This document shows positions 7,441 through 50,433 of a stretch of 64,000 bases of DNA, one piece after another. Made by a program: the position numbers and the translations under genes. Each line of letters starts with the position of its first letter. Positions within the stretch are counted from its first letter, which is position 1. Origin of the DNA: Bacteroidota bacterium (GTDB lineage Bacteria > Bacteroidota > Bacteroidia > AKYH767-A > OLB10). The stretch is taken from assembly GCA_031409815.1 (NCBI GenBank), contig JANNXV010000011.1:7148-71147 (forward strand), written 5' to 3'. The notes below the pieces were generated by a model. That model was not told the DNA's origin. It made no database searches and saw nothing but the letters and a program-made list of their open reading frames with translations.

Positions 7441-7521
7441 GTGTCGTTGACTAAGTTAATTTGGTTGATTAAGTTAACTGAGTCAACCAAATTAACTGAG
7501 TCAACCAATCAACTTAATTAA
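7441..7521. repeat. array of the 17-mer TTAACTGAGTCAACCAA (two exact direct copies plus two to three degenerate inverted copies)
   Basis: Exact copies lie at 7474-7490 and 7492-7508. Inverted degenerate copies are GTTGACTAAGTTAA at 7445-7458 and TTGGTTGATTAAGTTAA at 7461-7477. The array sits between the ldcA stop and the yraN start, both on the minus strand. Confidence 0.6.
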
Positions 7522-8454
7522 CTATTTAAGAAATTTTAAGTCAACTGTTTCACTAACACTTAACTCAACATTTGCTCCCATTATCAACGCTAAATTTCTT
7601 TTCACATGTCCTGCCGGAAAATCAAAGCAAACAGGATAATTGTATTCATCCACATGCTCCCTGATTATTTCTTCTGCTGTTTTTCCAAAAGGAATGGTGT
7701 TGTCGCGCATATCACTCATTCCTCCAACAATCAGTCCGGCTAAATTTTGCAGTTTGCCACTTCGTTTCAGTTGCATCATCATGCGGTCAATATGATAAAG
7801 ATATTCATCTAAATCTTCGATGAAAAGAACTTTTCCTTTGGTGTCGATATCTGAAACACTTCCACTCAATGCATAGAGCAACGAAAGATTTCCTCCGCAT
7901 AAAATTCCTTTAGCATTTCCATTCTTGTTTAATGATTGATTATTTGAAGCAGAAAATTTGTAATGCAACGTCACTCCTGTAAAAGCTTTGCCAAGTGATT
8001 CAACAGCATCTTTATCAAACTTTTCATGTTGCATATTAAAAAGCATACAACCGTGAATACTTTGTGTTTGAAAATGGTTTTGCAGATGGTTATGAATCAC
8101 TGTCATATCACTATATCCAACCAACCATTTGGGATATTGTTTGAATTTTGAAAAATCAAGTTTGTCAATAATGCGCACTGTTCCATATCCACCACGCGCG
8201 CTGATGATTGCTTTTACACTTTTATCATCCAACATTGTTTGCAAATCTTTTGCCCGTTCTGCATCCGTACCTGAATATTGATTTTGTTCTTTAAAAATAT
8301 TTTCACCTAACCTCACATTGAAACCCCAGCCTTCTAAAATTTTTATTCCATCGGCTAATTCTTTAGCAGCAACTTTTCGTGCTGGTGCAACAATACCGAT
8401 GGTATCTCCTGGTTTTAGAAATTGGGGTTGTGTCACTTTGTATCTTTGATGCAA
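7522..8454 (-). CDS. ldcA: LD-carboxypeptidase (peptidase S66, muramoyltetrapeptide carboxypeptidase)
   Basis: 310 aa with GDTIGIVAPA, RGGYGTVRI and GYSDMTVIH, which are S66 Ser/His/Glu triad regions. Confidence 0.8.
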   Translation of the reverse strand: MHQRYKVTQPQFLKPGDTIGIVAPARKVAAKELADGIKILEGWGFNVRLGENIFKEQNQYSGTDAERAKDLQTMLDDKSVKAIISARGGYGTVRIIDKLDFSKFKQYPKWLVGYSDMTVIHNHLQNHFQTQSIHGCMLFNMQHEKFDKDAVESLGKAFTGVTLHYKFSASNNQSLNKNGNAKGILCGGNLSLLYALSGSVSDIDTKGKVLFIEDLDEYLYHIDRMMMQLKRSGKLQNLAGLIVGGMSDMRDNTIPFGKTAEEIIREHVDEYNYPVCFDFPAGHVKRNLALIMGANVELSVSETVDLKFLK

Positions 8455-8597: not shown

Positions 8598-10706
8598 ATG
8601 TCCCGTTATCTCGTTACAGCTGCACTTCCCTATGCAAATGGCCCTGTTCACATTGGTCATATTGCAGGATGTTATTTGCCCGCTGATATTTATGTGCGAT
8701 ACCTTCGTCTGATTAATGAAGACGTGAAATTTATTTGTGGTTCAGATGAGCATGGTGTTCCCATTACCATAAAAGCTCGTAACGAAGGGGTAACTCCTCA
8801 GCAAATAGTTGATAAGTATCATAGTATGATGAAGAACTCTTTCGCTGAGTTTGGAATCTCGTTTGATATTTATTCGCGCACAACTAATAAAGTACATCAT
8901 GAAACGGCACAGACATTTTTTAAAAAGCTGTATGATGACAACGTTTTTACTGAAGAAGTTACTGAGCAATATTATGATGAGGAAGTAAAACAATTTTTAG
9001 CCGACCGTTATATTGAGGGCACTTGTCCGCGGTGTGGTTTTGCGCGTGCTTATGGTGATCAGTGCGAGAATTGCGGATCATCATTAAACCCGACTGATTT
9101 GATAAATCCTGTTTCAAAGCTTAGTGGAAAGGCTCCGGTATTGCGTAACACGAAAAATTGGTTTCTGCCATTAAACAAATTTGAAGCGGATTTAAAAAAA
9201 TGGATTGGCTCCCACCAGGAAGACTGGAAAGTAAATGTGTATGGTCAGTGCATGAGTTGGCTGAACACAGGTTTGCAACCACGTGCAATGACGCGTGACC
9301 TGGATTGGGGGGTGAAAGTTCCGTTGCCTGATACGGAAGGAAAAGTTTTGTATGTGTGGTTTGATGCACCGATTGGTTACATCTCTGCAACGAAAGAGCT
9401 GCTACCAAACGACTGGGAAAAATATTGGAAGGATAAAGATTCAAAACTCATTCATTTTATCGGCAAGGACAATATTGTTTTTCATTGTTTGATATTTCCC
9501 GCCATGTTGAAAGCGCATGGCGATTATTTGTTGCCGACCAATGTTCCTGCCAATGAGTTCTTAAATTTAGAAGGAGATAAAATTTCTACTTCGCGCAACT
9601 GGGCGGTGTGGTTGCATGAGTACCTGATTGATTTTAAAGACAAGCAGGATGTGTTGCGATATGTATTATGTGCAACTGCTCCCGAAACAAAAGACAATGA
9701 TTTTACCTGGAAAGATTTTCAGGCGCGAAACAATAATGAGTTGGTTGCAGTGTTCGGAAATTTTGTGAATCGAACATTGGTGCTTACTCAAAAATATTTT
9801 GAAGGAAAAATTCCTCCACATCACAAGCTGATTGATGCTGACCAGGATTGTATCTCTGCAATACAAGCAGCAAAAAGAAACATTAGCGACAGCATTGAAA
9901 AATTCCGTTTCCGTGAAGCGTTGAATGAACTGATGACGTTAGCGCGTGTCGGAAATAAATATTTAGCCGACACCGAACCATGGAAAGTCTATAAAACAGA
10001 TCCTCAACGTGTAGAAACTATTTTATACATCGCATTAGAAATTACCGCTGCACTTGCTGCATTGTGTGAGCCATTTCTTCCTCATACATCAGCAAGCTTG
10101 TATGCCATGCTCAATCTTGAAAAAGTAGATTGGGTAAAAGATTTGACCGGACAAATAATAAAACCCGGACATGCTTTAGGTGAAGTAAAATTATTATTTG
10201 AAAAAATTGAAGACGAAATGATGGACAAGCAAGTGGAGAAGCTACATGCTTCGAAAGCAGTGAATGCACAGCAGTCGGCAGTTGTCAGTGAAAAGGGGAC
10301 AATTGAAAAAAATGCTTCGACTGTGCTCAGCATGACCCAAGAGCCACAGGTCACACTGAGCGAAGTCGAAGTGTTGAAACCCGAAACTTCCTTCGATGAT
10401 TTCAGCAAAATGGATTTGCGTGTGGCAACTATTATCGCTGCTGAAAAAGTGGAGAAAGCTGATAAATTATTAAAGCTTACGCTTGATACCGGCATTGACC
10501 AGCGCACTGTTGTGAGTGGAATTGCATTGAACTACAAACCCGAAGAAATAATAGGACAACGCGTAACACTACTTGCAAATCTTGCTCCACGAAAAATCCG
10601 TGGTATCGAATCGAAGGGAATGATTTTGATGGCGGAGAATGAAAAAGGGGAATTGTGTTTTATTGCTCCGACTAAGGAGTTTGGGAATGGGAGTGGGATA
10701 AGCTAA
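8598..10706 (+). CDS. metG: methionyl-tRNA synthetase with C-terminal EMAP/tRNA-binding domain
   Basis: 702 aa with HIGH ([11 protein letters not shown]), a zinc knuckle (CPRCGF...CENCG) and KMSKS-like motifs. A C-terminal tRNA-binding domain follows ([22 protein letters not shown]). Confidence 0.95.
10334..10371 (+). repeat. remnant of the GTCATGCTGAGCGAAGTCGAAGC hairpin family embedded in-frame in metG linker
   Basis: GCTCAGCATGACCC at 10325-10338 and CTGAGCGAAGTCGAAG at 10356-10371 match the left and right arms of the 14193-14250 hairpin. Together they are translated as [17 protein letters not shown]. Confidence 0.55.
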
Positions 10707-13236: not shown

Positions 13237-14169
13237 ATGAATCAATCCATAAAAGTTTTCGCCCCGGCAACGGTAGCCAACGTAGGTTGCGGTTTTGATG
13301 TATTGGGTTTTGCAATACACGGACCCGGTGATAAAATCATCATGCGATTGAATGAAACAAAAAAAGTTTCTGTTGAATCAATCACAGGTGATAATGGTTC
13401 GCTTTCAAAAAACGCACATGAAAATACTGCAAGTGTAGCAGTGCTTGCAATGCTTAAAAAATTAAAATCAAAACAAGGATTGAGTATTGAGTTGCACAAG
13501 CAAATGCCGTTGAAAAGCGGTTTAGGTTCGAGTGCGGCAAGTGCAGTTGCAGGGGTATTTGCATTGAATGAATTATTAAACCGCCCGTTTTCAAAAGAAG
13601 AATTAATTCCGTTTGCAATGGAAGGTGAGCGTGTTGCATGCGGCACTGCTCATGCAGATAATGTGGCTCCATCCATGTTAGGCGGTTTAGTTTTGGTGCA
13701 TAGTTTAAATCCTTTGCAAGTAGTAAAGATTAATTCACCTTCAAAATTATTTTGTTGTGTGGTGCATCCACATTTAGAATTAGCTACAAAAAAATCAAGA
13801 GCTGCATTACCTAAACAAATCCCCTTACAAACAGCAGTAAAGCAATGGGCAAATGTTGGAGGATTGGTTGCAGGTTTTATGAAAAAAGATTTTGCTTTGA
13901 TCGGTTCTTCTATCGAAGATTTTGTTGCTGAACCCAATCGTTCAAAACTGATTAAAGGATTTGATGAAGTAAAGAAAGCTGCTATGAAATCAGGAGCATT
14001 AGGTTGCAGCATCTCAGGTTCGGGACCGACAGTATTTGCTTTGAGTGATAATAAAGAGAAATGCAAGTCAATTGCAAAAGCGATGCAAAATGCTTTTGCA
14101 AAATTTAATGTTGGGAGTGAACATTATGTTTCTACTATTAATAATAATGGAGTAAAAATTATTTCCTGA
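13237..14169 (+). CDS. thrB: homoserine kinase
   Basis: 310 aa with a GHMP kinase motif (PLKSGLGSSAASAVA). The gene starts immediately after the thrA stop. Confidence 0.9.
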   Translation: MNQSIKVFAPATVANVGCGFDVLGFAIHGPGDKIIMRLNETKKVSVESITGDNGSLSKNAHENTASVAVLAMLKKLKSKQGLSIELHKQMPLKSGLGSSAASAVAGVFALNELLNRPFSKEELIPFAMEGERVACGTAHADNVAPSMLGGLVLVHSLNPLQVVKINSPSKLFCCVVHPHLELATKKSRAALPKQIPLQTAVKQWANVGGLVAGFMKKDFALIGSSIEDFVAEPNRSKLIKGFDEVKKAAMKSGALGCSISGSGPTVFALSDNKEKCKSIAKAMQNAFAKFNVGSEHYVSTINNNGVKIIS

Positions 14170-14192
14170 GATGAATAATGCCTCAACACAAT

Positions 14193-14250
14193 GCTTCGAC
14201 TTCGCTCAGCATGACCCACACGTACGGGTCATGCTGAGCGAAGTCGAAGC
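14193..14250. repeat. perfect 25-bp-stem hairpin (GCTTCGACTTCGCTCAGCATGACCC / GGGTCATGCTGAGCGAAGTCGAAGC, loop ACACGTAC); member of a dispersed hairpin family; likely terminator between thrB and thrC
   Basis: The arms at 14193-14217 and 14226-14250 are exact reverse complements. Confidence 0.8.
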
Positions 14251-14262
14251 ACTATCAATTAA

Positions 14263-15567
14263 ATGCTAATGCAATTATATTCCACAAAAAATAAATCAAA
14301 ATTATTTACGCTTGAAGAAGCTGTTGTAAAAGGTTTGCCCGATGACAACGGCTTGTTCATGCCTGTTGAAATTCCTTTGTTGCCAAAATCATTTTTTCGG
14401 GAGATGCAACAAATGTCGTTTCAAGATATTGCTTACACGGTTGCTCAAACTTTAGTTGGTGATAGTGTTCCTGTTAATGAATTAAAAAAGATTGTTCATC
14501 ATGCTGTAAACTTTGCAGCGCCTATTATTGAGATAGAAAAAAATATTTATGTTTTAGAATTATTTCACGGACCCACACTTGCATTTAAAGATTTTGGTGC
14601 TAGGTTTATGTCTGGTTTGCTGCAATACTTTGTTGGCAGACAGGGAAAGAAATTAACCATCCTTGTTGCTACTTCAGGTGATACAGGTGGAGCGGTAGCT
14701 TCCGGTTTTTATGACGTGGAGGGAATTGAAGTAATCATTCTTTATCCTTCAAAAAAAGTAAGTGGTTTGCAGGAAAAACAACTTACAACGCTAGGGAAAA
14801 ATATTACAGCATTAGAAGTTGACGGAACATTTGATGATTGCCAGCATTTAGTGAAGCAAGCGTTTCTTGATGCTGAAATCAATCAGCATCTGCGTTTAAC
14901 TTCTGCCAACTCTATCAATATTGCGCGATTGATTCCTCAGACATTTTATTATTTCAATGCAATTGCACAATTAAAAACTACGGCTAGGGAAATTGTTTTT
15001 TCTGTTCCCAGCGGAAATTTTGGAAACCTCACAGCAGGATTAATTGCAAAGCGAATGGGATTACCTATTCATAAATTTATAGCAGCAACGAATGCAAATG
15101 ATATTGTACCCAACTATTTATTGAAAGGAATTTTTTCTCCAAAAGCAAGTGTGGCAACTATCAGCAATGCAATGGATGTGGGTAACCCAAGTAATTTTTA
15201 CCGCATGATGGATTTGTATGACAACGACCTGAGCAAAATTTCAAAAGACATTGCTGGCATCAGCATCACCGATGAAGAAACTAAACAAACCATCCAGTCA
15301 GTTTTTCAAAATCTTCATTACACACTCGACCCTCATGGAGCAGTTGGATATCTTGCTTTAAAGAAATATGTAGCAGCAAATTCTTTTGACAAAGCGATAT
15401 TTTTAGAAACTGCGCATCCTGCCAAATTTCCTGAAGTGGTGGAAGAGGTGACCAATGAAAAAATTGTTCTGCCAAAGCAATTGTCAGCTTTGATTTCTAA
15501 AACGAAAAGTTCTGTTTTAATGGGCAAAGAGTTTGAGAGTTTTAAGGAGTTTCTTCTAAAGAAATAA
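14263..15567 (+). CDS. thrC: threonine synthase
   Basis: 434 aa. A PLP-lysine region (PTLAFKDFG) is present, and the overall layout matches long-form ThrC. Confidence 0.9.
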   Translation: MLMQLYSTKNKSKLFTLEEAVVKGLPDDNGLFMPVEIPLLPKSFFREMQQMSFQDIAYTVAQTLVGDSVPVNELKKIVHHAVNFAAPIIEIEKNIYVLELFHGPTLAFKDFGARFMSGLLQYFVGRQGKKLTILVATSGDTGGAVASGFYDVEGIEVIILYPSKKVSGLQEKQLTTLGKNITALEVDGTFDDCQHLVKQAFLDAEINQHLRLTSANSINIARLIPQTFYYFNAIAQLKTTAREIVFSVPSGNFGNLTAGLIAKRMGLPIHKFIAATNANDIVPNYLLKGIFSPKASVATISNAMDVGNPSNFYRMMDLYDNDLSKISKDIAGISITDEETKQTIQSVFQNLHYTLDPHGAVGYLALKKYVAANSFDKAIFLETAHPAKFPEVVEEVTNEKIVLPKQLSALISKTKSSVLMGKEFESFKEFLLKK

Positions 15568-15590
15568 TAGTAAGGTTTGTAAATTCCATT

Positions 15591-15655
15591 TTGTCATGCT
15601 GACGAAGGAAGCATCTCTCTGGTGCCGCGAGATGCTTCCTTCGTCAGCATGACAA
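15591..15655. repeat. perfect 27-bp-stem hairpin (TTGTCATGCTGACGAAGGAAGCATCTC ... GAGATGCTTCCTTCGTCAGCATGACAA); same family as 14193-14250; terminator after thrC
   Basis: The arms at 15591-15617 and 15629-15655 are exact reverse complements. The 11-nt loop is TCTGGTGCCGC. Confidence 0.8.
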
Positions 15656-15731
15656 ACAATAGTGAGCATGATAGAAAATCGCAATAATGACCACTCTGTT
15701 TTCGTAGCTTTGCCGCTGATTAATACCTCAC

Positions 15732-17426: not shown

Positions 17427-17498
17427 GGTCTCGTAGTTCAATGGATAGAATAGAAGTTTCCTAAACTTTTGATGCAGGTTCGATTCCTGTCGAGACTA
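17427..17498 (+). tRNA. tRNA-Arg (anticodon CCT)
   Basis: Manual cloverleaf fold. The acceptor stem is GGTCTCG/CGAGACT with a G1-U72 wobble. The D-arm is GTTC...GAAT. The anticodon stem is GAAGT/ACTTT with loop TTCCTAA. The T-arm is GCAGG-TTCGATT-CCTGT, and the discriminator is A. Confidence 0.8.
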
Positions 17499-17512
17499 CA
17501 AAAAATGGGAGT

Positions 17513-17755
17513 ATGTATTATGCATACGTTTTGAAAAGTAAAAATCATGACTATTATTACAAAGGTCATTGTCATGATTTGCAAAAACGACTAACCCAAC
17601 ATAATTCCGGGATGACTGCATCCATACGACCTTATATCCCGTTTGAAATAGTTTATACTGAAAGTTTTGAATCGGAAGCAGATGCAATTCAAAGAGAAAA
17701 ATATTTTAAGTCTGCTGCCGGAAGAAGATATTTAAAAAGGAAAATTGTTCCGTAG
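17513..17755 (+). CDS. small GIY-YIG nuclease family protein (UPF0213/YhbQ-like)
   Basis: 80 aa. YYAYVLKS and YYYKGHCHDLQKRLTQHNSG are the GIY and YIG motifs. A conserved Glu lies in the FEIVYTESFES...REKYFK block. The gene sits between a tRNA-Arg and its degenerate duplicate. Confidence 0.85.
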   Translation: MYYAYVLKSKNHDYYYKGHCHDLQKRLTQHNSGMTASIRPYIPFEIVYTESFESEADAIQREKYFKSAAGRRYLKRKIVP

Positions 17756-17873
17756 CTCAATTCTCGTTCGAACGAACTATTCGGTACAGACGGGGAATAG
17801 AAGTTTCCTAAACTTTTGATGCAGGTTCCCTGCCCGAATGAATTCGTTCAGGCGGGGATTCCTGTCGGGACTA
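17747..17873 (+). other. degenerate duplicate of tRNA-Arg(CCT) interrupted by two mutually complementary insertions (tRNA-like remnant / att-like repeat)
   Basis: 17796-17828 is identical to tRNA positions 23-55. 17858-17873 (ATTCCTGTCGGGACTA) matches the tRNA 3' end with one change. The 5' GTTCCGTAGCTCAAT resembles the tRNA 5' end. The insertions at 17762-17795 and 17829-17857 are roughly reverse-complementary (GAACGAA..ATTCGG..CAG versus CTG..CCGAAT..TTCGTTC). Confidence 0.6.
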
Positions 17874-17880
17874 CAAAAAA

Positions 17881-37299: not shown

Positions 37300-37307
37300 T
37301 AATGGCT

Positions 37308-37334
37308 GTCATGCTGAGACAAGTTCAGTATGAC
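37308..37334. repeat. hairpin GTCATGCTGA-gacaagt-TCAGTATGAC (same GTCATGCTGA family) between convergent meaB and TPR gene
   Basis: 10-bp stem with one G-U pair. It shares the GTCATGCTGAG core with the hairpins at 14193 and 15591. Confidence 0.55.
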
Positions 37335-45236: not shown

Positions 45237-47102
45237 ATGAAAAAATATTTAGCACTCTTGCTTGTGATGGTTGTTGGTTGCAACCAATCTGCAAAAAAAA
45301 ATTCTGAAAACACAGAAAACATAACCGTTAATGATGAGCACTCGTTTGCGAAACCGAATGAGGCTGTTGTCAAACATCTTGATCTCAATTTAAAAGTTGA
45401 TTTTGAAAAAAAGCAGCTCGCAGGTAAAGCCACACTCACTATTGAAAATATTGCAAAAGGAAACAACTTACATCTGGATACACGTGACCTGAATATTATT
45501 GCGATCACTTTGGATGAGAATAGTATTACCACCTTTGAGATGAAACCTGCTGTTGCTATTCTTGGTCAGGAATTAATTGTGGCCATTAAACCGGAAACCC
45601 AAAAAGTAAATATTGAATACACTACATCTGCCGAAGGTGGTGCAGTGCAGTGGTTGAGTCCTGCACAAACTGCCGGAGGCAAGCAACCTTTTTTATTTAC
45701 ACATAGCGAAGCCATACTGGCACGTACTTGGATTCCTTTACAGGACAGTCCGGGAATAAGATTTACCTACGATGCAACCATCCAATGCCCACCCAATTTA
45801 ATGGCAGTGATGAGCGCTGAAAACGATACGCTACTGCATTCAGATGGTGTCTATCATTTTCATATGCCACAGCCTATCCCATCTTACCTGATGGCATTGG
45901 CAGTAGGCGATTTAAAATTTCACTCGTATGATAATCGCAGTGGTGTTTTTGCCGAACCGGTAACATTGCCAAAAGCTGCCAACGAATTAGTTGATATACC
46001 GCGCATGATTGCAGCAGCCGAAGAATTGTATGGCCCTTATGCCTGGGGCCGTTATGATGTGTTGATATTGCCTCCAAGTTTTCCTTTTGGGGGAATGGAA
46101 AACCCACGGCTCACTTTTGCAACTCCTACTATTCTGGCTGGCGATCGTTCATTAGTTGCATTGATAGCGCATGAATTAGCACATAGCTGGAGCGGCAACT
46201 TAGTTACCAATGCAACCTGGAACGATTTCTGGCTCAATGAAGGCTTTACCGTGTATTTTGAAACACGCATTATGGAAAAATTATTTGGTAAAGACTATGC
46301 AGATATGTTAACCGTTCTGGGGAAAGGCGATCTTGATGGTACCATCGCGGATTTAGGAGATAAAAATCCTGACACACATCTTTATCTCAACCTTAAAGGA
46401 CGTGATCCGGATGAGGGCGTGAGTGATATTGCGTATGAGAAAGGAAGATTCTTTCTAACCAGTATAGAACAAACGGTGGGTCGTGATAAATGGGATTTGT
46501 TCTTAAAAAAATATTTTACCGAAAATGCTTTTCACAGCATGACCACTGAAATGTTTCTGGCATATCTTGATAAAGAACTTATCAAAAGTGACACCGCACT
46601 CAAAAACAATTTGCACATACAAGAATGGGTGTATAGTCCTGGATTGCCTGCTAATTTTCCAATTGTAACTTCTGCTGAATTAGATAAGGCAAAAGCAGCT
46701 GCTAATGATTTTATGAAAGGAACATCGCCAGCAAAAATCAATACTCAAGGTTGGACCACACACCACTGGTTGCAGTTTTTACGTGCCATGCCCAACGAAC
46801 TTACAACTGAGCAAATGAAATCTTTGGATGCACAATTTCAATTTACCGAAAGTGGTAATTCAGAAATTCTTTGCGACTGGTTGCGGCATTGTATCAGCAG
46901 CAATTATTCAGCAGCGGATTTAACCCTCGATCAATTTTTGATGAATGTAGGAAGACGCAAATTTTTACGACCGCTCTATGGCGATCTAATAAAAACTCCA
47001 TCTGGCAAAGAAAAGGCAAAAGCAATTTATGCCAGGGCAAGGCCGGGCTATCATTCAATTGCTACCACAACTTTGGATGAGATGCTGGGGGTGCCACAGT
47101 AA
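45237..47102 (+). CDS. M1 family zinc aminopeptidase (LTA4 hydrolase-like) lipoprotein
   Basis: 621 aa with a lipoprotein signal (LLVMVVGCNQS), GGMEN, HELAHSWSGN (HExxH) and a downstream WLNEGFTVY Glu ligand. Confidence 0.85.
   Translation: MKKYLALLLVMVVGCNQSAKKNSENTENITVNDEHSFAKPNEAVVKHLDLNLKVDFEKKQLAGKATLTIENIAKGNNLHLDTRDLNIIAITLDENSITTFEMKPAVAILGQELIVAIKPETQKVNIEYTTSAEGGAVQWLSPAQTAGGKQPFLFTHSEAILARTWIPLQDSPGIRFTYDATIQCPPNLMAVMSAENDTLLHSDGVYHFHMPQPIPSYLMALAVGDLKFHSYDNRSGVFAEPVTLPKAANELVDIPRMIAAAEELYGPYAWGRYDVLILPPSFPFGGMENPRLTFATPTILAGDRSLVALIAHELAHSWSGNLVTNATWNDFWLNEGFTVYFETRIMEKLFGKDYADMLTVLGKGDLDGTIADLGDKNPDTHLYLNLKGRDPDEGVSDIAYEKGRFFLTSIEQTVGRDKWDLFLKKYFTENAFHSMTTEMFLAYLDKELIKSDTALKNNLHIQEWVYSPGLPANFPIVTSAELDKAKAAANDFMKGTSPAKINTQGWTTHHWLQFLRAMPNELTTEQMKSLDAQFQFTESGNSEILCDWLRHCISSNYSAADLTLDQFLMNVGRRKFLRPLYGDLIKTPSGKEKAKAIYARARPGYHSIATTTLDEMLGVPQ
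47076..47102 (+). repeat. left copy of 27-bp direct repeat GATGAGATGCTGGGGGTGCCACAGTAA (3' end of aminopeptidase gene)
   Basis: Identical to 47863-47889. Together the two copies flank the REP-RAYT insertion. Confidence 0.9.
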
Positions 47103-47862
47103 GTTAATCACACAAACCTCCGAGGTTTAATTAGCGAATTAACAAGTGAAAAATAAAACAAACTTCAACCAATGTCTCAGGCATTACCTCCTTTAGAACC
47201 CGATTGTTATTATCACATTTATAATCATGCAAACGGCAGCGATGCATTGTTTAGAAGCGATGAAAATTATTATTACTTCCTTGAGAAATATATTCAGCAT
47301 ATTGATCCTTTTGTAAACACTTTTGCTTATTGCATGATGCCAAATCATTTTCATTTCTTTATTCAGGTTAAGGAAGATCAGTCGCAGCAAACCTCCGAGG
47401 TTTCTAAAAACCTCGGAGGTTTAAACAATGAAGAAGCATCCAAAGAAATAGATTTATCGAAACGTTTATCAAATTTATTTAATGCTTATACAAAGGCATA
47501 AAACAAAAAATTTGATCGAAGGGGAAGTTTATTTAATCATCGTTTCAAAAGAAAAAGAGTTGAAACAAACGACTACTTCATTCAACTTATTAAGTACATT
47601 CATTTAAACCCAGTGCATCATGGTTTTGTAAAACATCCAGCGGATTGGAAATTCTCTTCCTATCATTCGTTTTTAGACAAGAGAAAAACAAAGATTAATC
47701 GAAGTGAGGTTTTAATGTGGTTTGATGGAGCAGACAATTTCAGGTATGCGCATCAGTTACCTCTGAGTGATAAGTTTATTTTAGAGATGGATATTTAACC
47801 GAAAATAAACCTCCTAGGTTTTTAAAACCTAGGAGGTTTATACTGTAGCAACAGAAACGTTT
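47103..47862 (+). mobile_element. REP-RAYT (IS200-like, REP-associated tyrosine transposase) insertion flanked by 27-bp direct duplication; transposase inactivated
   Basis: REP-like palindromes AAACCTCCGAGGTTT lie at 47114-47128, 47390-47404 and 47406-47421. Variants AAACCTCCTAGGTTT / AAACCTAGGAGGTTT lie at 47808-47822 and 47825-47839. The element contains the interrupted HuH transposase ORF and is bounded by perfect 27-bp direct repeats. Confidence 0.75.
47172..47798 (+). pseudogene. IS200/IS605-like Y1 (RAYT) transposase interrupted by in-frame TAA at 47499-47501
   Basis: The HuH motif is PNHFHFF. After a single in-frame TAA the same frame continues NKKFDRRGSLFNHRFKRKRVE...YIHLNPVHHGFV...WKFSSYHSF, which includes the catalytic Tyr. 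The ORF track splits this into 47172..47501 and 47613..47798, both in frame 0. Two REP palindromes lie inside the ORF at 47390-47421. Confidence 0.75.
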
Positions 47863-47889
47863 GATGAGATGCTGGGGGTGCCACAGTAA
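47863..47889 (+). repeat. right copy of 27-bp direct repeat GATGAGATGCTGGGGGTGCCACAGTAA
   Basis: A perfect copy of 47076-47102, including the TAA stop of the aminopeptidase gene. Confidence 0.9.
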
Positions 47890-48084: not shown

Positions 48085-49458
48085 ATGAAAAGAGTTTATA
48101 TCACTTTAATCTCAATACTTTTTATAAATACAATGCGGGCGCAAAACCAGGCCAACAACTGGTATTTTGGATATAATGCAGGCATAAACTTTAGCGCCAA
48201 CCCACCTATGGCCATAAACGGTGGAATGCTTACTACTGGCGAAGGATGCACCACCATGAGCGATGCCAGCGGCAACCTGTTGTTTTATTCTGATGGCGTA
48301 AATGTATGGGATCGCACGCATTCTATAATGCCAAACGGAACGGGTTTGTTTGGCCATGGATCATCAACACAATCGGCCTTAGCGGTACCTATGCCGGGCA
48401 GCACCACACTTTATTATCTTTTTACTGTACCTGCATTGCAAGACACTAACCCAATGGCTTATTCTATTGTGGATATGGCACTGCACAGTGGTTTTGGCGA
48501 TATCACCCTTAAGAACAACACACTGCTCAACAGCTCAACCGAAAAACTAACAGCTGTGTACCACAGTAATGGAACAGATATTTGGATTATAGTGCATGGT
48601 TACCCGAACAATTATTTTTATGCTTACCTGCTCACCGCATCTGGCTTAAACATCACACCTGTTGCATCCTTAGTAGGCAGCGGAATACTTTCTAGCAATA
48701 GTAAAGCTGGATATTTAAAAGCATCTTCATGCGGCAACAAGCTGGCTATGGCCAACGTTGGGTCGTTTACTGGGTCAACCTTTGAGCTGTTCGATTTCGA
48801 CAATACCGCTGGCACCGTTTCCAACGCGATAATTCTGGGTACATGGATAGGTCCCAAGGCTTATGGATGCGAGTTTTCACCCGATAATACAAAACTGTAT
48901 GCTTCATTTTGGGCTCCAGTCTGTGTAGTACAATTCGATTTAATGGCGGGTTCAACAGCAGCCATCGCTGCATCCATGGACACAGCTGGTATTCCGTCTG
49001 CTGTTCAAATCGGAGCCCTGCAAACCGGCCCTGACGGAAGAATTTATATTGCGAAAAAAGGCGATACGCATCTCGCTGCAATTATGAACCCCAACCAGCC
49101 AGCAGCATCCTGTGGATTCATAGATAATTATTTGACGCTAAGCGCCACTTGCTATTGGGGGCTACCCAATTTCATTTCTTCTTATTTCTGCAATATACGT
49201 TCGAGCGTTAACGAGGCACAGCAGCACGAGGCCGTTACCCTCTCTCCCAATCCCACCACTTCCTCCTGCACCATCACGTCATCATCTTTCACTAACTCTA
49301 CCCTCACTCTTTACGATATAACTGGCAGAACATTATTGCAACAACCTTTCAATTCTACAGCAGAATTAAATTTAAGTGCGTTCACACCAAGCATTTATAT
49401 TATCGAACTAAAAGATAAACAAGGGCACAGCGCAAAAGCAAAAGTGGTGAATGAATAA
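48085..49458 (+). CDS. secreted protein with T9SS C-terminal sorting domain (paralog of 23785..25293)
   Basis: The ORF opens at 48013, but the Met at 48085 begins a signal peptide (MKRVYITLISILFINTMRAQNQANNWYFGYNAGINF). The C-terminus is Por CTD-like (VTLSPNPTTSSCTI...IYIIELKDKQGHSAKAKVV). Confidence 0.6.
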   Translation: MKRVYITLISILFINTMRAQNQANNWYFGYNAGINFSANPPMAINGGMLTTGEGCTTMSDASGNLLFYSDGVNVWDRTHSIMPNGTGLFGHGSSTQSALAVPMPGSTTLYYLFTVPALQDTNPMAYSIVDMALHSGFGDITLKNNTLLNSSTEKLTAVYHSNGTDIWIIVHGYPNNYFYAYLLTASGLNITPVASLVGSGILSSNSKAGYLKASSCGNKLAMANVGSFTGSTFELFDFDNTAGTVSNAIILGTWIGPKAYGCEFSPDNTKLYASFWAPVCVVQFDLMAGSTAAIAASMDTAGIPSAVQIGALQTGPDGRIYIAKKGDTHLAAIMNPNQPAASCGFIDNYLTLSATCYWGLPNFISSYFCNIRSSVNEAQQHEAVTLSPNPTTSSCTITSSSFTNSTLTLYDITGRTLLQQPFNSTAELNLSAFTPSIYIIELKDKQGHSAKAKVVNE

Positions 49459-49459
49459 T

Positions 49460-49523
49460 CGTCATTGCGAGGAACGAAGCAATATTTCCATAGCAAGAGA
49501 TTGCTTCGTTCCTCGCAATGACG
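49460..49523. repeat. perfect 24-bp-stem hairpin CGTCATTGCGAGGAACGAAGCAAT...ATTGCTTCGTTCCTCGCAATGACG (bidirectional terminator between convergent genes)
   Basis: The arms at 49460-49483 and 49500-49523 are exact reverse complements, with a 16-nt loop. It begins with the GTCAT core shared with the other long hairpins. Confidence 0.8.
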
Positions 49524-49524
49524 T

Positions 49525-50433
49525 TCAAATAGTTTGTTTAGCAGCAACAACCGAATCGCGCTTTAACTTCCGCTCTTCAATTACCTGAAGAAATGGCGCC
49601 AGCTCTTTATTCAACTCTTCCACGGAGTGATGAGTGGCTGTATTATTTTCAGGCAACTGCAACCACGGCTTTCGTTTGCCATACGGATAGGCTCCAAAAA
49701 TAATTACAGGAGTTCCGTAAGCAGCAATGTTATGGTCGTCAATTAAAATCCATTGATCAGCCCAGTCATAAAACCAATGCGCATCCTCATCATACAAACG
49801 CATGCATGCATGCGATGCCGGAAAACCCGGCAAGTCGTATTGATGCAGCGAAACACCACGTGCATTATCCAGATTAAAATACCAACTCAATTTCCAGTCA
49901 GGATTATCGGTGCTTACCGTTTTTTTTGCTTTCCAATTGGTAAAATATAAACCGGTTGGAGTAGGCGTTGCTCGTTTGCCCATACTGGTGGGTCCCCAAC
50001 GAACAAGGTTTCCATTTTGATAAGCCGCAAACATTTGTGAGTAGTAAGAAAATAAAATCAGTTTAGGAATATCGGCAATTACCGGAAGGCTTAAAGGATA
50101 TGGAGCATAACGAGTAGTGTCAATCAAAAAAGTATCAGGTACAACCAATGTGTCGGCCTTCCATACGTGTTCAAAATCAATTCGGTTTAATGCCAGAATT
50201 AAATGTAGTTTTTTATCAGTAAACAGCGTATGAAGTTGAGTAATCAGCAGGCTGTCGAGGGGTAAATAATGATAAGTGAGGGGTAGCACTTCGACTGGTT
50301 TAGTGATTGGTTTTTCCAATACTACTTTCACTGCCGGACTATTTTTTTTCTCTTTTGGTTTCGTTTGATTGCAGGAAATTTGAACCCCGATAAAAACCAA
50401 AAAAATAAAATGGAAAAATTTGTTGGTGAACAT
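49525..50433 (-). CDS. L,D-transpeptidase family lipoprotein (YkuD domain)
   Basis: 302 aa with a lipoprotein signal (VFIGVQISCNQ). The C-terminal catalytic motif is HQYD...PASHACMRL (His...Cys of YkuD). Confidence 0.55.
   Translation of the reverse strand: MFTNKFFHFIFLVFIGVQISCNQTKPKEKKNSPAVKVVLEKPITKPVEVLPLTYHYLPLDSLLITQLHTLFTDKKLHLILALNRIDFEHVWKADTLVVPDTFLIDTTRYAPYPLSLPVIADIPKLILFSYYSQMFAAYQNGNLVRWGPTSMGKRATPTPTGLYFTNWKAKKTVSTDNPDWKLSWYFNLDNARGVSLHQYDLPGFPASHACMRLYDEDAHWFYDWADQWILIDDHNIAAYGTPVIIFGAYPYGKRKPWLQLPENNTATHHSVEELNKELAPFLQVIEERKLKRDSVVAAKQTI

Follow-up and report, generated by a model that had tools for sequence, protein, structure and literature searches.

Palindromic elements in the window

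The window analyzed here is a 64,000-nucleotide stretch of the genome of a Bacteroidota bacterium (NCBI GenBank assembly GCA_031409815.1, contig JANNXV010000011.1, positions 7,148 to 71,147 of the forward strand). Its G+C content is ~38%, and it encodes proteins with type IX secretion sorting tails. Scattered through it is a family of palindromic DNA elements, which this work describes and relates to the repeats that accompany small single-domain nucleases of the GIY-YIG superfamily. A previous reading of the sequence alone had reported four long intergenic hairpins; all four are present, at coordinates that agree to within 1 to 2 nt, and an inverted-repeat scan of the window revealed a further element that had been overlooked, lying within the gene for methionyl-tRNA synthetase (MetRS). 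The elements and their loop types are as follows.

10312-10374, no strand assigned: head-to-head heterodimer in the MetRS gene, arms 83% complementary
14192-14217 / 14226-14251, no strand assigned: head-to-head homodimer of type A units, 26 bp, 100% complementary, loop of 8 nt
15590-15617 / 15629-15656, no strand assigned: tail-to-tail homodimer of type B units, 28 bp, 100% complementary, loop of 11 nt
37307-37334, plus strand: single degenerate unit, TGTC ATGCT GAGACAAGTTC AGTAT GAC
49460-49483 / 49500-49523, no strand assigned: tail-to-tail homodimer of type C units, 24 bp, 100% complementary, loop of 16 nt
Loop types of the window: A, GAGCGAAGTCGA, at 14192 and 10312; B, GACGAAGGA, at 15590; C, GAGGAACGAA, at 49460

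The window thus holds two tail-to-tail and two head-to-head dimers. The type A homodimer consists of a minus-strand unit (14191-14217) and a plus-strand unit (14226-14251), each of the form NGTC / ATGCT / GAGCGAAGTCGA / AGCA(T), with the tags facing the 8-nt spacer. It lies in the 93-nt spacer between the co-directional genes thrB and thrC, with the thrC start 11 nt downstream, and its predicted DNA fold has an energy of -35.2 kcal/mol (z = -13.7). The type B homodimer begins 22 nt 3' of the thrC stop codon; its units (15593-15614 on the plus strand and 15632-15653 on the minus strand) read TGTC / ATGCT / GACGAAGGA / AGCAT / CTC, with the tags at the stem base and a fold energy of -33.6 kcal/mol for the dimer. 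The type C homodimer, with units of the form CGTC / ATTGC / GAGGAACGAA / GCAAT / CTC and a fold energy of -29.3 kcal/mol, occupies the 66-nt gap between two convergent genes, one for a protein with a type IX secretion tail (stop at 49458) and one for a YkuD protein (stop at 49525). Folded as single-stranded DNA (ssDNA), the three long dimers together span -29 to -35 kcal/mol, with z scores of -11 to -14. The degenerate unit at 37307, which sits between the convergent MeaB and TPR genes, is less stable (-6.7 kcal/mol, z = -2.8); its stem runs on through the tag to give 10 pairs, one of which is G.T. The same "closed" form, ...AGCATGAC, is also present at five loci elsewhere (L020, L041, L043, L073, and L105).

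Other parts of the previous description can be made more exact. The shared core it proposed is well above chance expectation, as GTCATKSYGAS occurs 8 times in the window compared to 0.18 expected from dinucleotide shuffles, the largest shuffle giving 2. The four intergenic copies are indeed at gene 3' ends or between convergent genes, and all start 1 to 22 nt past a stop codon. The core was said to lie at the stem end, which is correct for the tail-to-tail dimers at 15590 and 49460, where it forms the base, but not for the head-to-head dimers at 14192 and 10312, where it faces the loop. Because the GTCAT core is loop-side in some hairpins and at the base in others, what is repeated is a single arm, arranged as an inverted pair. 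The basic element is therefore one arm of 22 to 30 nt, referred to here as a unit, of which each long hairpin is an inverted dimer. A unit comprises an unpaired NGTC tag, a 5-bp stem starting with A, a conserved loop of 9 to 12 nt containing CGAAG, a 3' stem half ending in T, and a CTC tail.

Distribution and dimer organization

To define the spread of the unit, a species-representative genome collection (596 Gb) was scanned for exact matches to one arm, the 23-mer GTCATGCTGAGCGAAGTCGAAGC. This sequence was found in at least 119 stretches, compared to ~0.02 expected by chance in 596 Gb, and copies therefore exist far beyond the four loci first noticed. Among the matches listed, the hosts bear the labels of eight phyla. 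The Bacteroidota isolates among them include many members of Hymenobacter as well as Chryseobacterium, Sphingobacterium, and Parabacteroides, and the metagenome-assembled genomes (MAGs) are assigned to Ignavibacteria, Zixibacteria, Verrucomicrobia (Udaeobacter and Chthoniobacterales), Acidobacteria, Chloroflexi, Dependentiae, and Clostridia. The G+C content of the loci ranges from 0.29 to 0.68, and the sequences flanking the copies are unrelated. The earlier suggestion of a dispersed family resembling repetitive extragenic palindromes (REPs) and bacterial interspersed mosaic elements (BIMEs) is supported by these stretches, by the dimers and clusters that the units form, and by the intragenic copy. 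Matching of unit sequence strings to literature text retrieved only unrelated primers.

Neighboring units at the genome loci are arranged tail-to-tail in 74 pairs, head-to-head in 11, and head-to-tail in 21. Neighbors are often different variants, and heterodimers account for 54 of the 74 pairs in tail-to-tail arrangement. Since most pairs are heterodimeric, the perfect long stems of the window represent a special case in which both units are identical. The great length and perfection of these stems are a by-product of two identical units in inverted orientation.

One dimer could be followed across species. Three Chryseobacterium loci (L067, L071, and L113; alignment A7) share an orthologous head-to-head dimer in which one arm is invariant over 26 nt, and the partner arm and the downstream spacer vary, the latter including a 24-nt indel. 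The invariance of this unit in three genomes indicates that copies can persist through speciation. In Chryseobacterium, an additional common motif (TTAGTATTAGA / CTAATACTA...TTAGCG) also stands before the unit, which may thus belong to a larger composite repeat.

Anatomy of the unit

Covariation was assessed on 61 distinct sequences chosen by the loop GAGCGNAGNCGA alone, leaving out the carriers of the 23-mer used to fetch the loci. At the five positions flanking the loop, 87 to 97% of these units form Watson-Crick pairs, and each position shows more than one kind of pair. In a formal count, 92.5% of cells were paired, compared to 71% in shuffled sets and 32 to 44% when the partners were slid; 66 cells showed changes on both sides, compared to 17 expected, and 0 of 500 shuffles reached the observed value. 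Four stem positions covary. Pairing ends past 5 bp, as only 30% of units are paired at position 6, where the GTC and CTC flanks begin. These outer flanks, 5' (N)GTC and 3' CTC(T), are conserved and unpaired; GTC is present in 51 to 53 of the 61 units, and the first pair is A-T in 51. Loop lengths range from 9 to 12 nt with modes at 11 and 12. CGAAG is common to loop types A, B, and C, and the 11-nt loop that is commonest elsewhere, GAGCGAAGCGA, contains GCGAAGC. The DNA heptamer d(GCGAAGC) reportedly forms an unusually stable mini-hairpin (work of Hirao and colleagues), which we take as a lead rather than a test.

The proposal that the family evolves under structural rather than sequence constraint is thus half right. 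Four stem positions do covary, but the tag, the loop, and the tail are strongly conserved, and an identical 23-mer recurs across phyla.

An in-frame copy in the MetRS gene

The element at 10312-10374 lies in frame within a 702-amino-acid MetRS open reading frame (ORF; 8598-10706), of which it encodes approximately residues 572 to 593. Its arms occupy 10312-10336 on the minus strand, with the stem ATGCT/AGCAT, and 10350-10374 on the plus strand, with the stem ACACT/AGTGT; the loop type of the element is A, GAGCGAAGTCGA. As the two arms have different stems, each of which is self-complementary, constraint acts on the unit and not on the long hairpin.

The inserted residues lie in the linker between the Anticodon_3 domain, which ends at residue 550, and the tRNA_bind domain, which starts at residue 607. 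When aligned with 15 MetRS orthologues (alignment A1), the ~20 element-encoded residues are absent from most of them. The closest orthologue (75 to 79% identical) has a linker of similar length and unrelated sequence. Two other orthologues, also from Bacteroidota (P0002 and P0005; A1 columns 410 to 445), contain a different unit-like peptide, ACFDSAQQAK, in the same interdomain linker, and in P0002 this peptide is tandemly repeated three to four times. Judging from this alignment, the MetRS linker has evidently taken up unit-like insertions more than once, which points to repeated, independent insertion at a tolerant site. The Rickettsia palindromic elements (RPEs) offer a parallel, in that a palindromic repeat is likewise inserted in frame where a housekeeping protein tolerates it, at the surface or in a linker. 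The present case differs in that only one in-frame copy was seen and in that the element is much shorter than RPE-1.

Association with Ssn-type GIY-YIG genes

Neighbors of the units were identified by all-against-all clustering of the ORFs located within 600 bp of the 23-mer at the 119 genome loci. Only one specific family recurred, a small GIY-YIG protein encoded at seven loci from different taxa. All of these GIY-YIG genes lie within 600 bp of a unit, none being found further off in the same loci, and at one locus (L009) the gene sits between inverted units.

As an independent sample, 80 metagenome loci were fetched by protein similarity to the GIY-YIG proteins alone and searched with a unit detector requiring GTC, a 5-bp stem, a GA-initiated loop of 7 to 25 nt, and a perfectly complementary stem. 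The detector returned 231 units, compared to 5.2 in shuffled sequences. Unit density per kb fell from 5.2 within 150 bp of the GIY-YIG gene to 1.4 at 151 to 500 bp and 0.19 beyond 500 bp, and was 0.05 inside the gene. A unit was present within 200 bp of the gene at 60 of the 80 loci (75%), and units flanked both sides at 34 (52%) of the 65 loci whose sequence was long enough. Orientation was also regular: of 50 nearest upstream units, 39 shared the strand of the gene, and of 49 nearest downstream units, 40 were on the other strand, with median unit-to-gene gaps of ~38 nt. The usual layout is therefore unit(+)-gene-unit(-) with the tags pointing outward, in which the gene takes the place held by the loop in the tail-to-tail dimers of the window.

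The arms of tail-to-tail dimers are equal to the units that bracket these genes, and all three loop types of the window flank Ssn-like genes elsewhere. Type B is found beside such genes at L158, L169, L171, and L179, and a near-identical type C unit adjoins an Ssn-like gene on a Spirosoma plasmid (L201) and also at L179. Types B and C flank the same genes within one protein cluster, for example at L179, L158, and L171. Across the metagenome loci (L120 to L199), the 9-nt loops GACGAAGGA and GAGGMACGA go with a protein cluster marked by YITTNP, the 12-nt loop GAGCGNAGYCGA with a Hymenobacter-like cluster, and GAGCTTGTCGA with another; some of these loci consistently pair one unit type upstream with another downstream. 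The rough tracking of loop type with protein cluster is suggestive only, and hints at cognate enzyme/site pairs. Four metagenome loci (L133, L136, L190, and L192) carry dense BIME-like arrays around the gene, consisting of 8 to 20 alternating units of two or three types with a regular spacing of ~40 to 90 nt.

The unit-flanked protein of one genome locus (L035) matched two Neisseria gonorrhoeae chromosomes (filed among plasmids) at 43.7% identity (E value of 6e-14). The matched gene is ringed by eight matches to the published patterns for NTS and for the Ssn-related motifs (SRMs), and on the basis of these flanks it is ssnA. Six unit-flanked proteins from the genome loci (five of alignment A2, plus that of L053) are 32 to 44% identical to the N. 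gonorrhoeae protein, with pairwise E values of 1e-10 to 1e-22. NCBIfam gave no specific name for the unit-associated proteins, and the Protein Data Bank returned only the UPF0213 structural-genomics entries 1zg2 and 1ywl.

Relation to Ssn-related motifs

SsnA is a 94-amino-acid single-domain GIY-YIG protein (CDD cd10448) that binds the repeat NTS as a hairpin (Chenal et al. 2025, PMC11893778). It cuts ssDNA just upstream of NTS, on one strand only, and is inactive on double-stranded DNA and RNA (PMC11893778). The Neisseria NTS, CGTCATTCCCGCGMAVGCGGGAATCYRG, is the oriented form of dRS3, and the NTS-ssnA-NTS layout has been likened to an insertion sequence (PMC11893778). Thousands of Ssn homologues are known, with SRMs nearby in 71% of cases and on both sides in 42%; strand-specific binding and cleavage of the repeats as ssDNA have been demonstrated for the Neisseria and Wolbachia pairs only (PMC11893778).

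Since the unit-flanked proteins are homologous to the NTS-flanked SsnA of Neisseria, the hairpins can be placed among the Ssn-related motifs, with kinship to the CGTC-tagged REPs discussed below. We regard it as highly probable that the long hairpins of the window are inverted dimers of SRMs, that is, NTS-like repeats accompanying single-domain GIY-YIG ssDNA nucleases. The covarying anatomy of the unit, its wide spread, its tight and oriented link to Ssn-homologous genes, and its insertion into a coding linker are matters of direct observation.

Similarities to SRMs and NTS extend to the unpaired 5' (C/T)GTC tag followed by an A-T pair, the hairpin core, and a directional C-rich tail. All nine units of the window have GTC followed by A and then T or C, and the preceding base is T or C in five and G, which lies outside the H of the published pattern, in four. 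With a length of 22 to 30 nt, the units also fall within the 20 to 50 nt of the semi-palindromic SRM core. Both kinds of repeat occur as hundreds of dispersed, mostly intergenic copies and form a repeat-ssn-repeat cassette, and the frequencies of association found here (75% for any unit and 52% for both sides) resemble the published 71% and 42%. There are also differences. The GC-rich stem of NTS has 8 bp and its loop 4 nt, whereas the units have a stem of 5 bp and a conserved loop of 9 to 12 nt (GAGCGNAGYCGA, GACGAAGGA, or GAGGAACGAA), and the tail is CTC rather than the CCA or CYRG of described forms. Further points that distinguish the units are the weak predicted unit fold, the Bacteroidota host, the presence of several unit types in one window, and the recurrence of an identical 23-mer across phyla when the adjacent proteins are only ~45 to 55% identical. 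As set apart by the published pattern and description, the units are a structural variant of the Ssn/SRM kind.

The kin just mentioned, the "CGTC-tagged REPs," comprise dRS3, Rickettsia RPE-4 and RPE-6, and many alphaproteobacterial repeats (Di Nocera, De Gregorio, and Rocco 2013, PMC3733652). These repeats are reported never to flank tyrosine transposase genes and to have no dedicated transposase (PMC3733652); the units are likewise without an associated tyrosine transposase. In both, a CGTC/TGTC tag at one end stays unpaired, the stem opens with A-T, the tail is short, dimers are frequent, and in-frame copies occur within genes. CGTC-tagged REPs have a stem of 8 to 9 bp, a 4- to 5-nt loop, and a CCA tail, in contrast to 5 bp, 9 to 12 nt, and CTC here. 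In addition, they are mostly arranged head-to-head and rarely tail-to-tail, whereas tail-to-tail pairs predominate among the present units (74 versus 11). Four other classes of element, namely, integron attC sites, dif/Xer sites, CRISPR repeats, and IS200/IS605 ends, are set apart by description, as all of them lack the NGTC tag, the GAGCG...CGA loop, and the GIY-YIG neighbor.

Several findings weigh against the assignment to SRMs. The published SRM pattern, HGTCWYN(0-2)YYVSBRHN(0-5)WNVSBRGN(0-2)RNCYNB, has no match in the window and none among the 517 units of the 199 loci; the same expression does find NTS and 8 copies around the N. gonorrhoeae ssnA gene. A lone unit folds weakly, at -1.6 to -2.4 kcal/mol by nearest-neighbor DNA parameters, which is no better than its shuffles, compared to -8.9 kcal/mol for NTS; within perfect dimers, folding of the unit would face competition from the long hairpin. 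The phylum labels beyond Bacteroidota all come from MAGs, which are possibly misbinned. Finally, no clear cognate Ssn gene was found within the 64-kb window. Its only GIY-YIG ORF (17513-17755; PF01541) is a distant relative, just 31% identical to the N. gonorrhoeae SsnA (E value of 3e-6); the conserved C-terminal W.R..K..LI part is missing from it, and no units flank it.

That ORF, of 80 amino acids, directly follows a tRNA-Arg(CCT) gene (17427-17499). Beyond it, at ~17795-17879, lies a second copy of the 3' two-thirds of the tRNA gene, with a 28-nt imperfect palindrome (17829-17856) inserted in its T-arm. The segment from 17427 to 17880 looks like a small mobile GIY-YIG cassette aimed at a tRNA gene, and it belongs to another branch than the unit-flanked Ssn homologues.

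Proposed mode of action

By analogy with SsnA and NTS, a cognate Ssn protein would bind the folded unit on one strand when the DNA becomes single stranded, as in replication, transformation, or repair. The bound enzyme would then nick the DNA a few nucleotides 5' of the tag. On the same model, the gene-less dimers of the window may be non-autonomous relatives of the unit-ssn-unit cassette that are spread or kept by Ssn activity. Where the hairpins are transcribed as part of a 3' untranslated region, they may incidentally protect mRNA 3' ends, which would not be their defining role.

A more far-reaching version of this proposal is conceivable, and we put it forward only tentatively. [quoted passage not shown] Such elements might cross phyla with a near-invariant site and repeatedly enter protein linkers in frame, and Ssn might thereby supply the "missing transposase" of the CGTC-tagged REPs.

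Alternative explanations

Another explanation is that the hairpins are transcription terminators or stabilizers of mRNA 3' ends selected at gene ends, with the shared sequence representing a lineage-specific terminator consensus. REP-type hairpins are known to stabilize upstream mRNA in Escherichia coli. In favor of this explanation, the four intergenic copies begin 1 to 22 nt past stop codons, with convergent genes on either side of two of them, and the stems are extremely stable. However, no copy is followed by a T/U tract, and a terminator and promoter scan flagged none of them. Because T-tracts are lacking, the hairpins are not canonical terminators, and the terminator function that had been suggested as possible finds no support in the sequence. 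The copy between thrB and thrC, which ends 11 nt short of the thrC start, is apparently within an operon, and another interrupts the coding sequence of MetRS. Around ssn genes, such units stand on either side in fixed orientation, upstream copies being as common as downstream ones, and an identical 23-mer across phyla is unexpected for terminators. We therefore consider selection as terminators or stabilizers unlikely as the origin of the family. It is compatible with the assignment to SRMs as a side effect, and protection of mRNA 3' ends is possible.

Less likely still, in our estimate by a clear step, is that the elements are classical REPs or REP doublets (REPINs) mobilized by a REP-associated tyrosine transposase (RAYT), an IS200-like Y1 transposase. 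The dimers, the intergenic placement, and the clusters do recall REPINs and BIMEs. In the REPIN/RAYT system (Bertels and Rainey 2011; Nunvar 2010), as here, inverted doublets of a short palindrome produce long hairpins, a lone small nuclease gene has its own repeats on its flanks, and copies persist at orthologous sites. The window even contains a RAYT-like ORF (47172-47798), with a weak Pfam match to Y1_Tnp and HUH-like NHFH and YIHLNP motifs. This gene, however, is broken by a TAA stop in frame at 47499-47501, and the hairpins found on its flanks and within it are of another family, AAACCTCNGAGGTTT, not GTC-tagged units. A phmmer search with the window RAYT against all ORFs of the 119 genome loci detected no RAYT, and clustering of the ORFs within 600 bp of the 23-mer gave no RAYT family. 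The association with RAYT-like genes that had been proposed for testing was thus not found: no RAYT is near the units in the 119 genome and 80 metagenome loci, where the gene present is instead of the Ssn GIY-YIG type. The enzyme is accordingly GIY-YIG rather than HUH/Y1, and the unit tag is NGTC, as opposed to the GTAG of RAYT-associated REPs; CGTC REPs are reported never to flank tyrosine transposases (PMC3733652).

The RAYT pseudogene has a history of its own. It is bracketed by AAACCTCCGAGGTTT at 47114-47128 and by an 18-bp perfect hairpin at 47805-47841, and a third copy of this hairpin family lies in frame inside the pseudogene (47389-47422). REP insertions within tnpA-REP genes have been described for subclass 2.4 (PMC6006769). 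Directly after the cassette, positions 47863-47889 repeat the last 27 nt, including the stop codon, of the upstream M1 aminopeptidase gene (45237-47102), and, to judge from this repeat, the RAYT cassette seems to have inserted into the 3' end of that gene.

A structured noncoding RNA motif acting at the RNA level, through protein binding or regulation, would account for the covarying stem and for the G.T of the 37307 copy, which would be a G.U pair in RNA, but we give it the least credence of all, as Rfam has no family at gathering score, units occur in both orientations relative to the flanking genes and as inverted pairs, and RNA versions of the repeats are not bound by the Ssn enzymes characterized so far (PMC11893778). 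At gathering thresholds, Rfam detected only two tRNAs in the whole window, and a permissive scan of 14150-15700 gave generic, far subthreshold matches to eukaryotic microRNA hairpins on both strands, which are meaningless.

One further palindrome of the window is unrelated to the GTC-tagged family. At 7446-7522, in an 89-nt gap between two minus-strand genes, a 30-nt palindrome with no spacer and 90% complementarity (GTTGACTAAGTTAATTTGGTTGATTAAGTT / AACTGAGTCAACCAAATTAACTGAGTCAAC) overlaps further inverted repeats.

Implications for Ssn-associated repeats

The 2025 description of the Ssn/SRM system drew mainly on Proteobacteria and used a search pattern that fails to find any of the present units. 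If the class with the GAGCG...CGA loop is a true Ssn substrate, the published census undercounts the system in Bacteroidota and several other phyla, and many new enzyme/site pairs would become available as ssDNA tools. For genome annotation, the long perfect hairpins, the spurious small ORFs they give rise to, and odd peptide inserts such as ...SFDFAQHD... and ...VMLSEVEA... are to be read as repeat elements rather than as terminators or real coding sequence. With the oriented unit-ssn-unit layout and the gene-less dimers in hand, the spread of CGTC-type REPs becomes a directly testable question.

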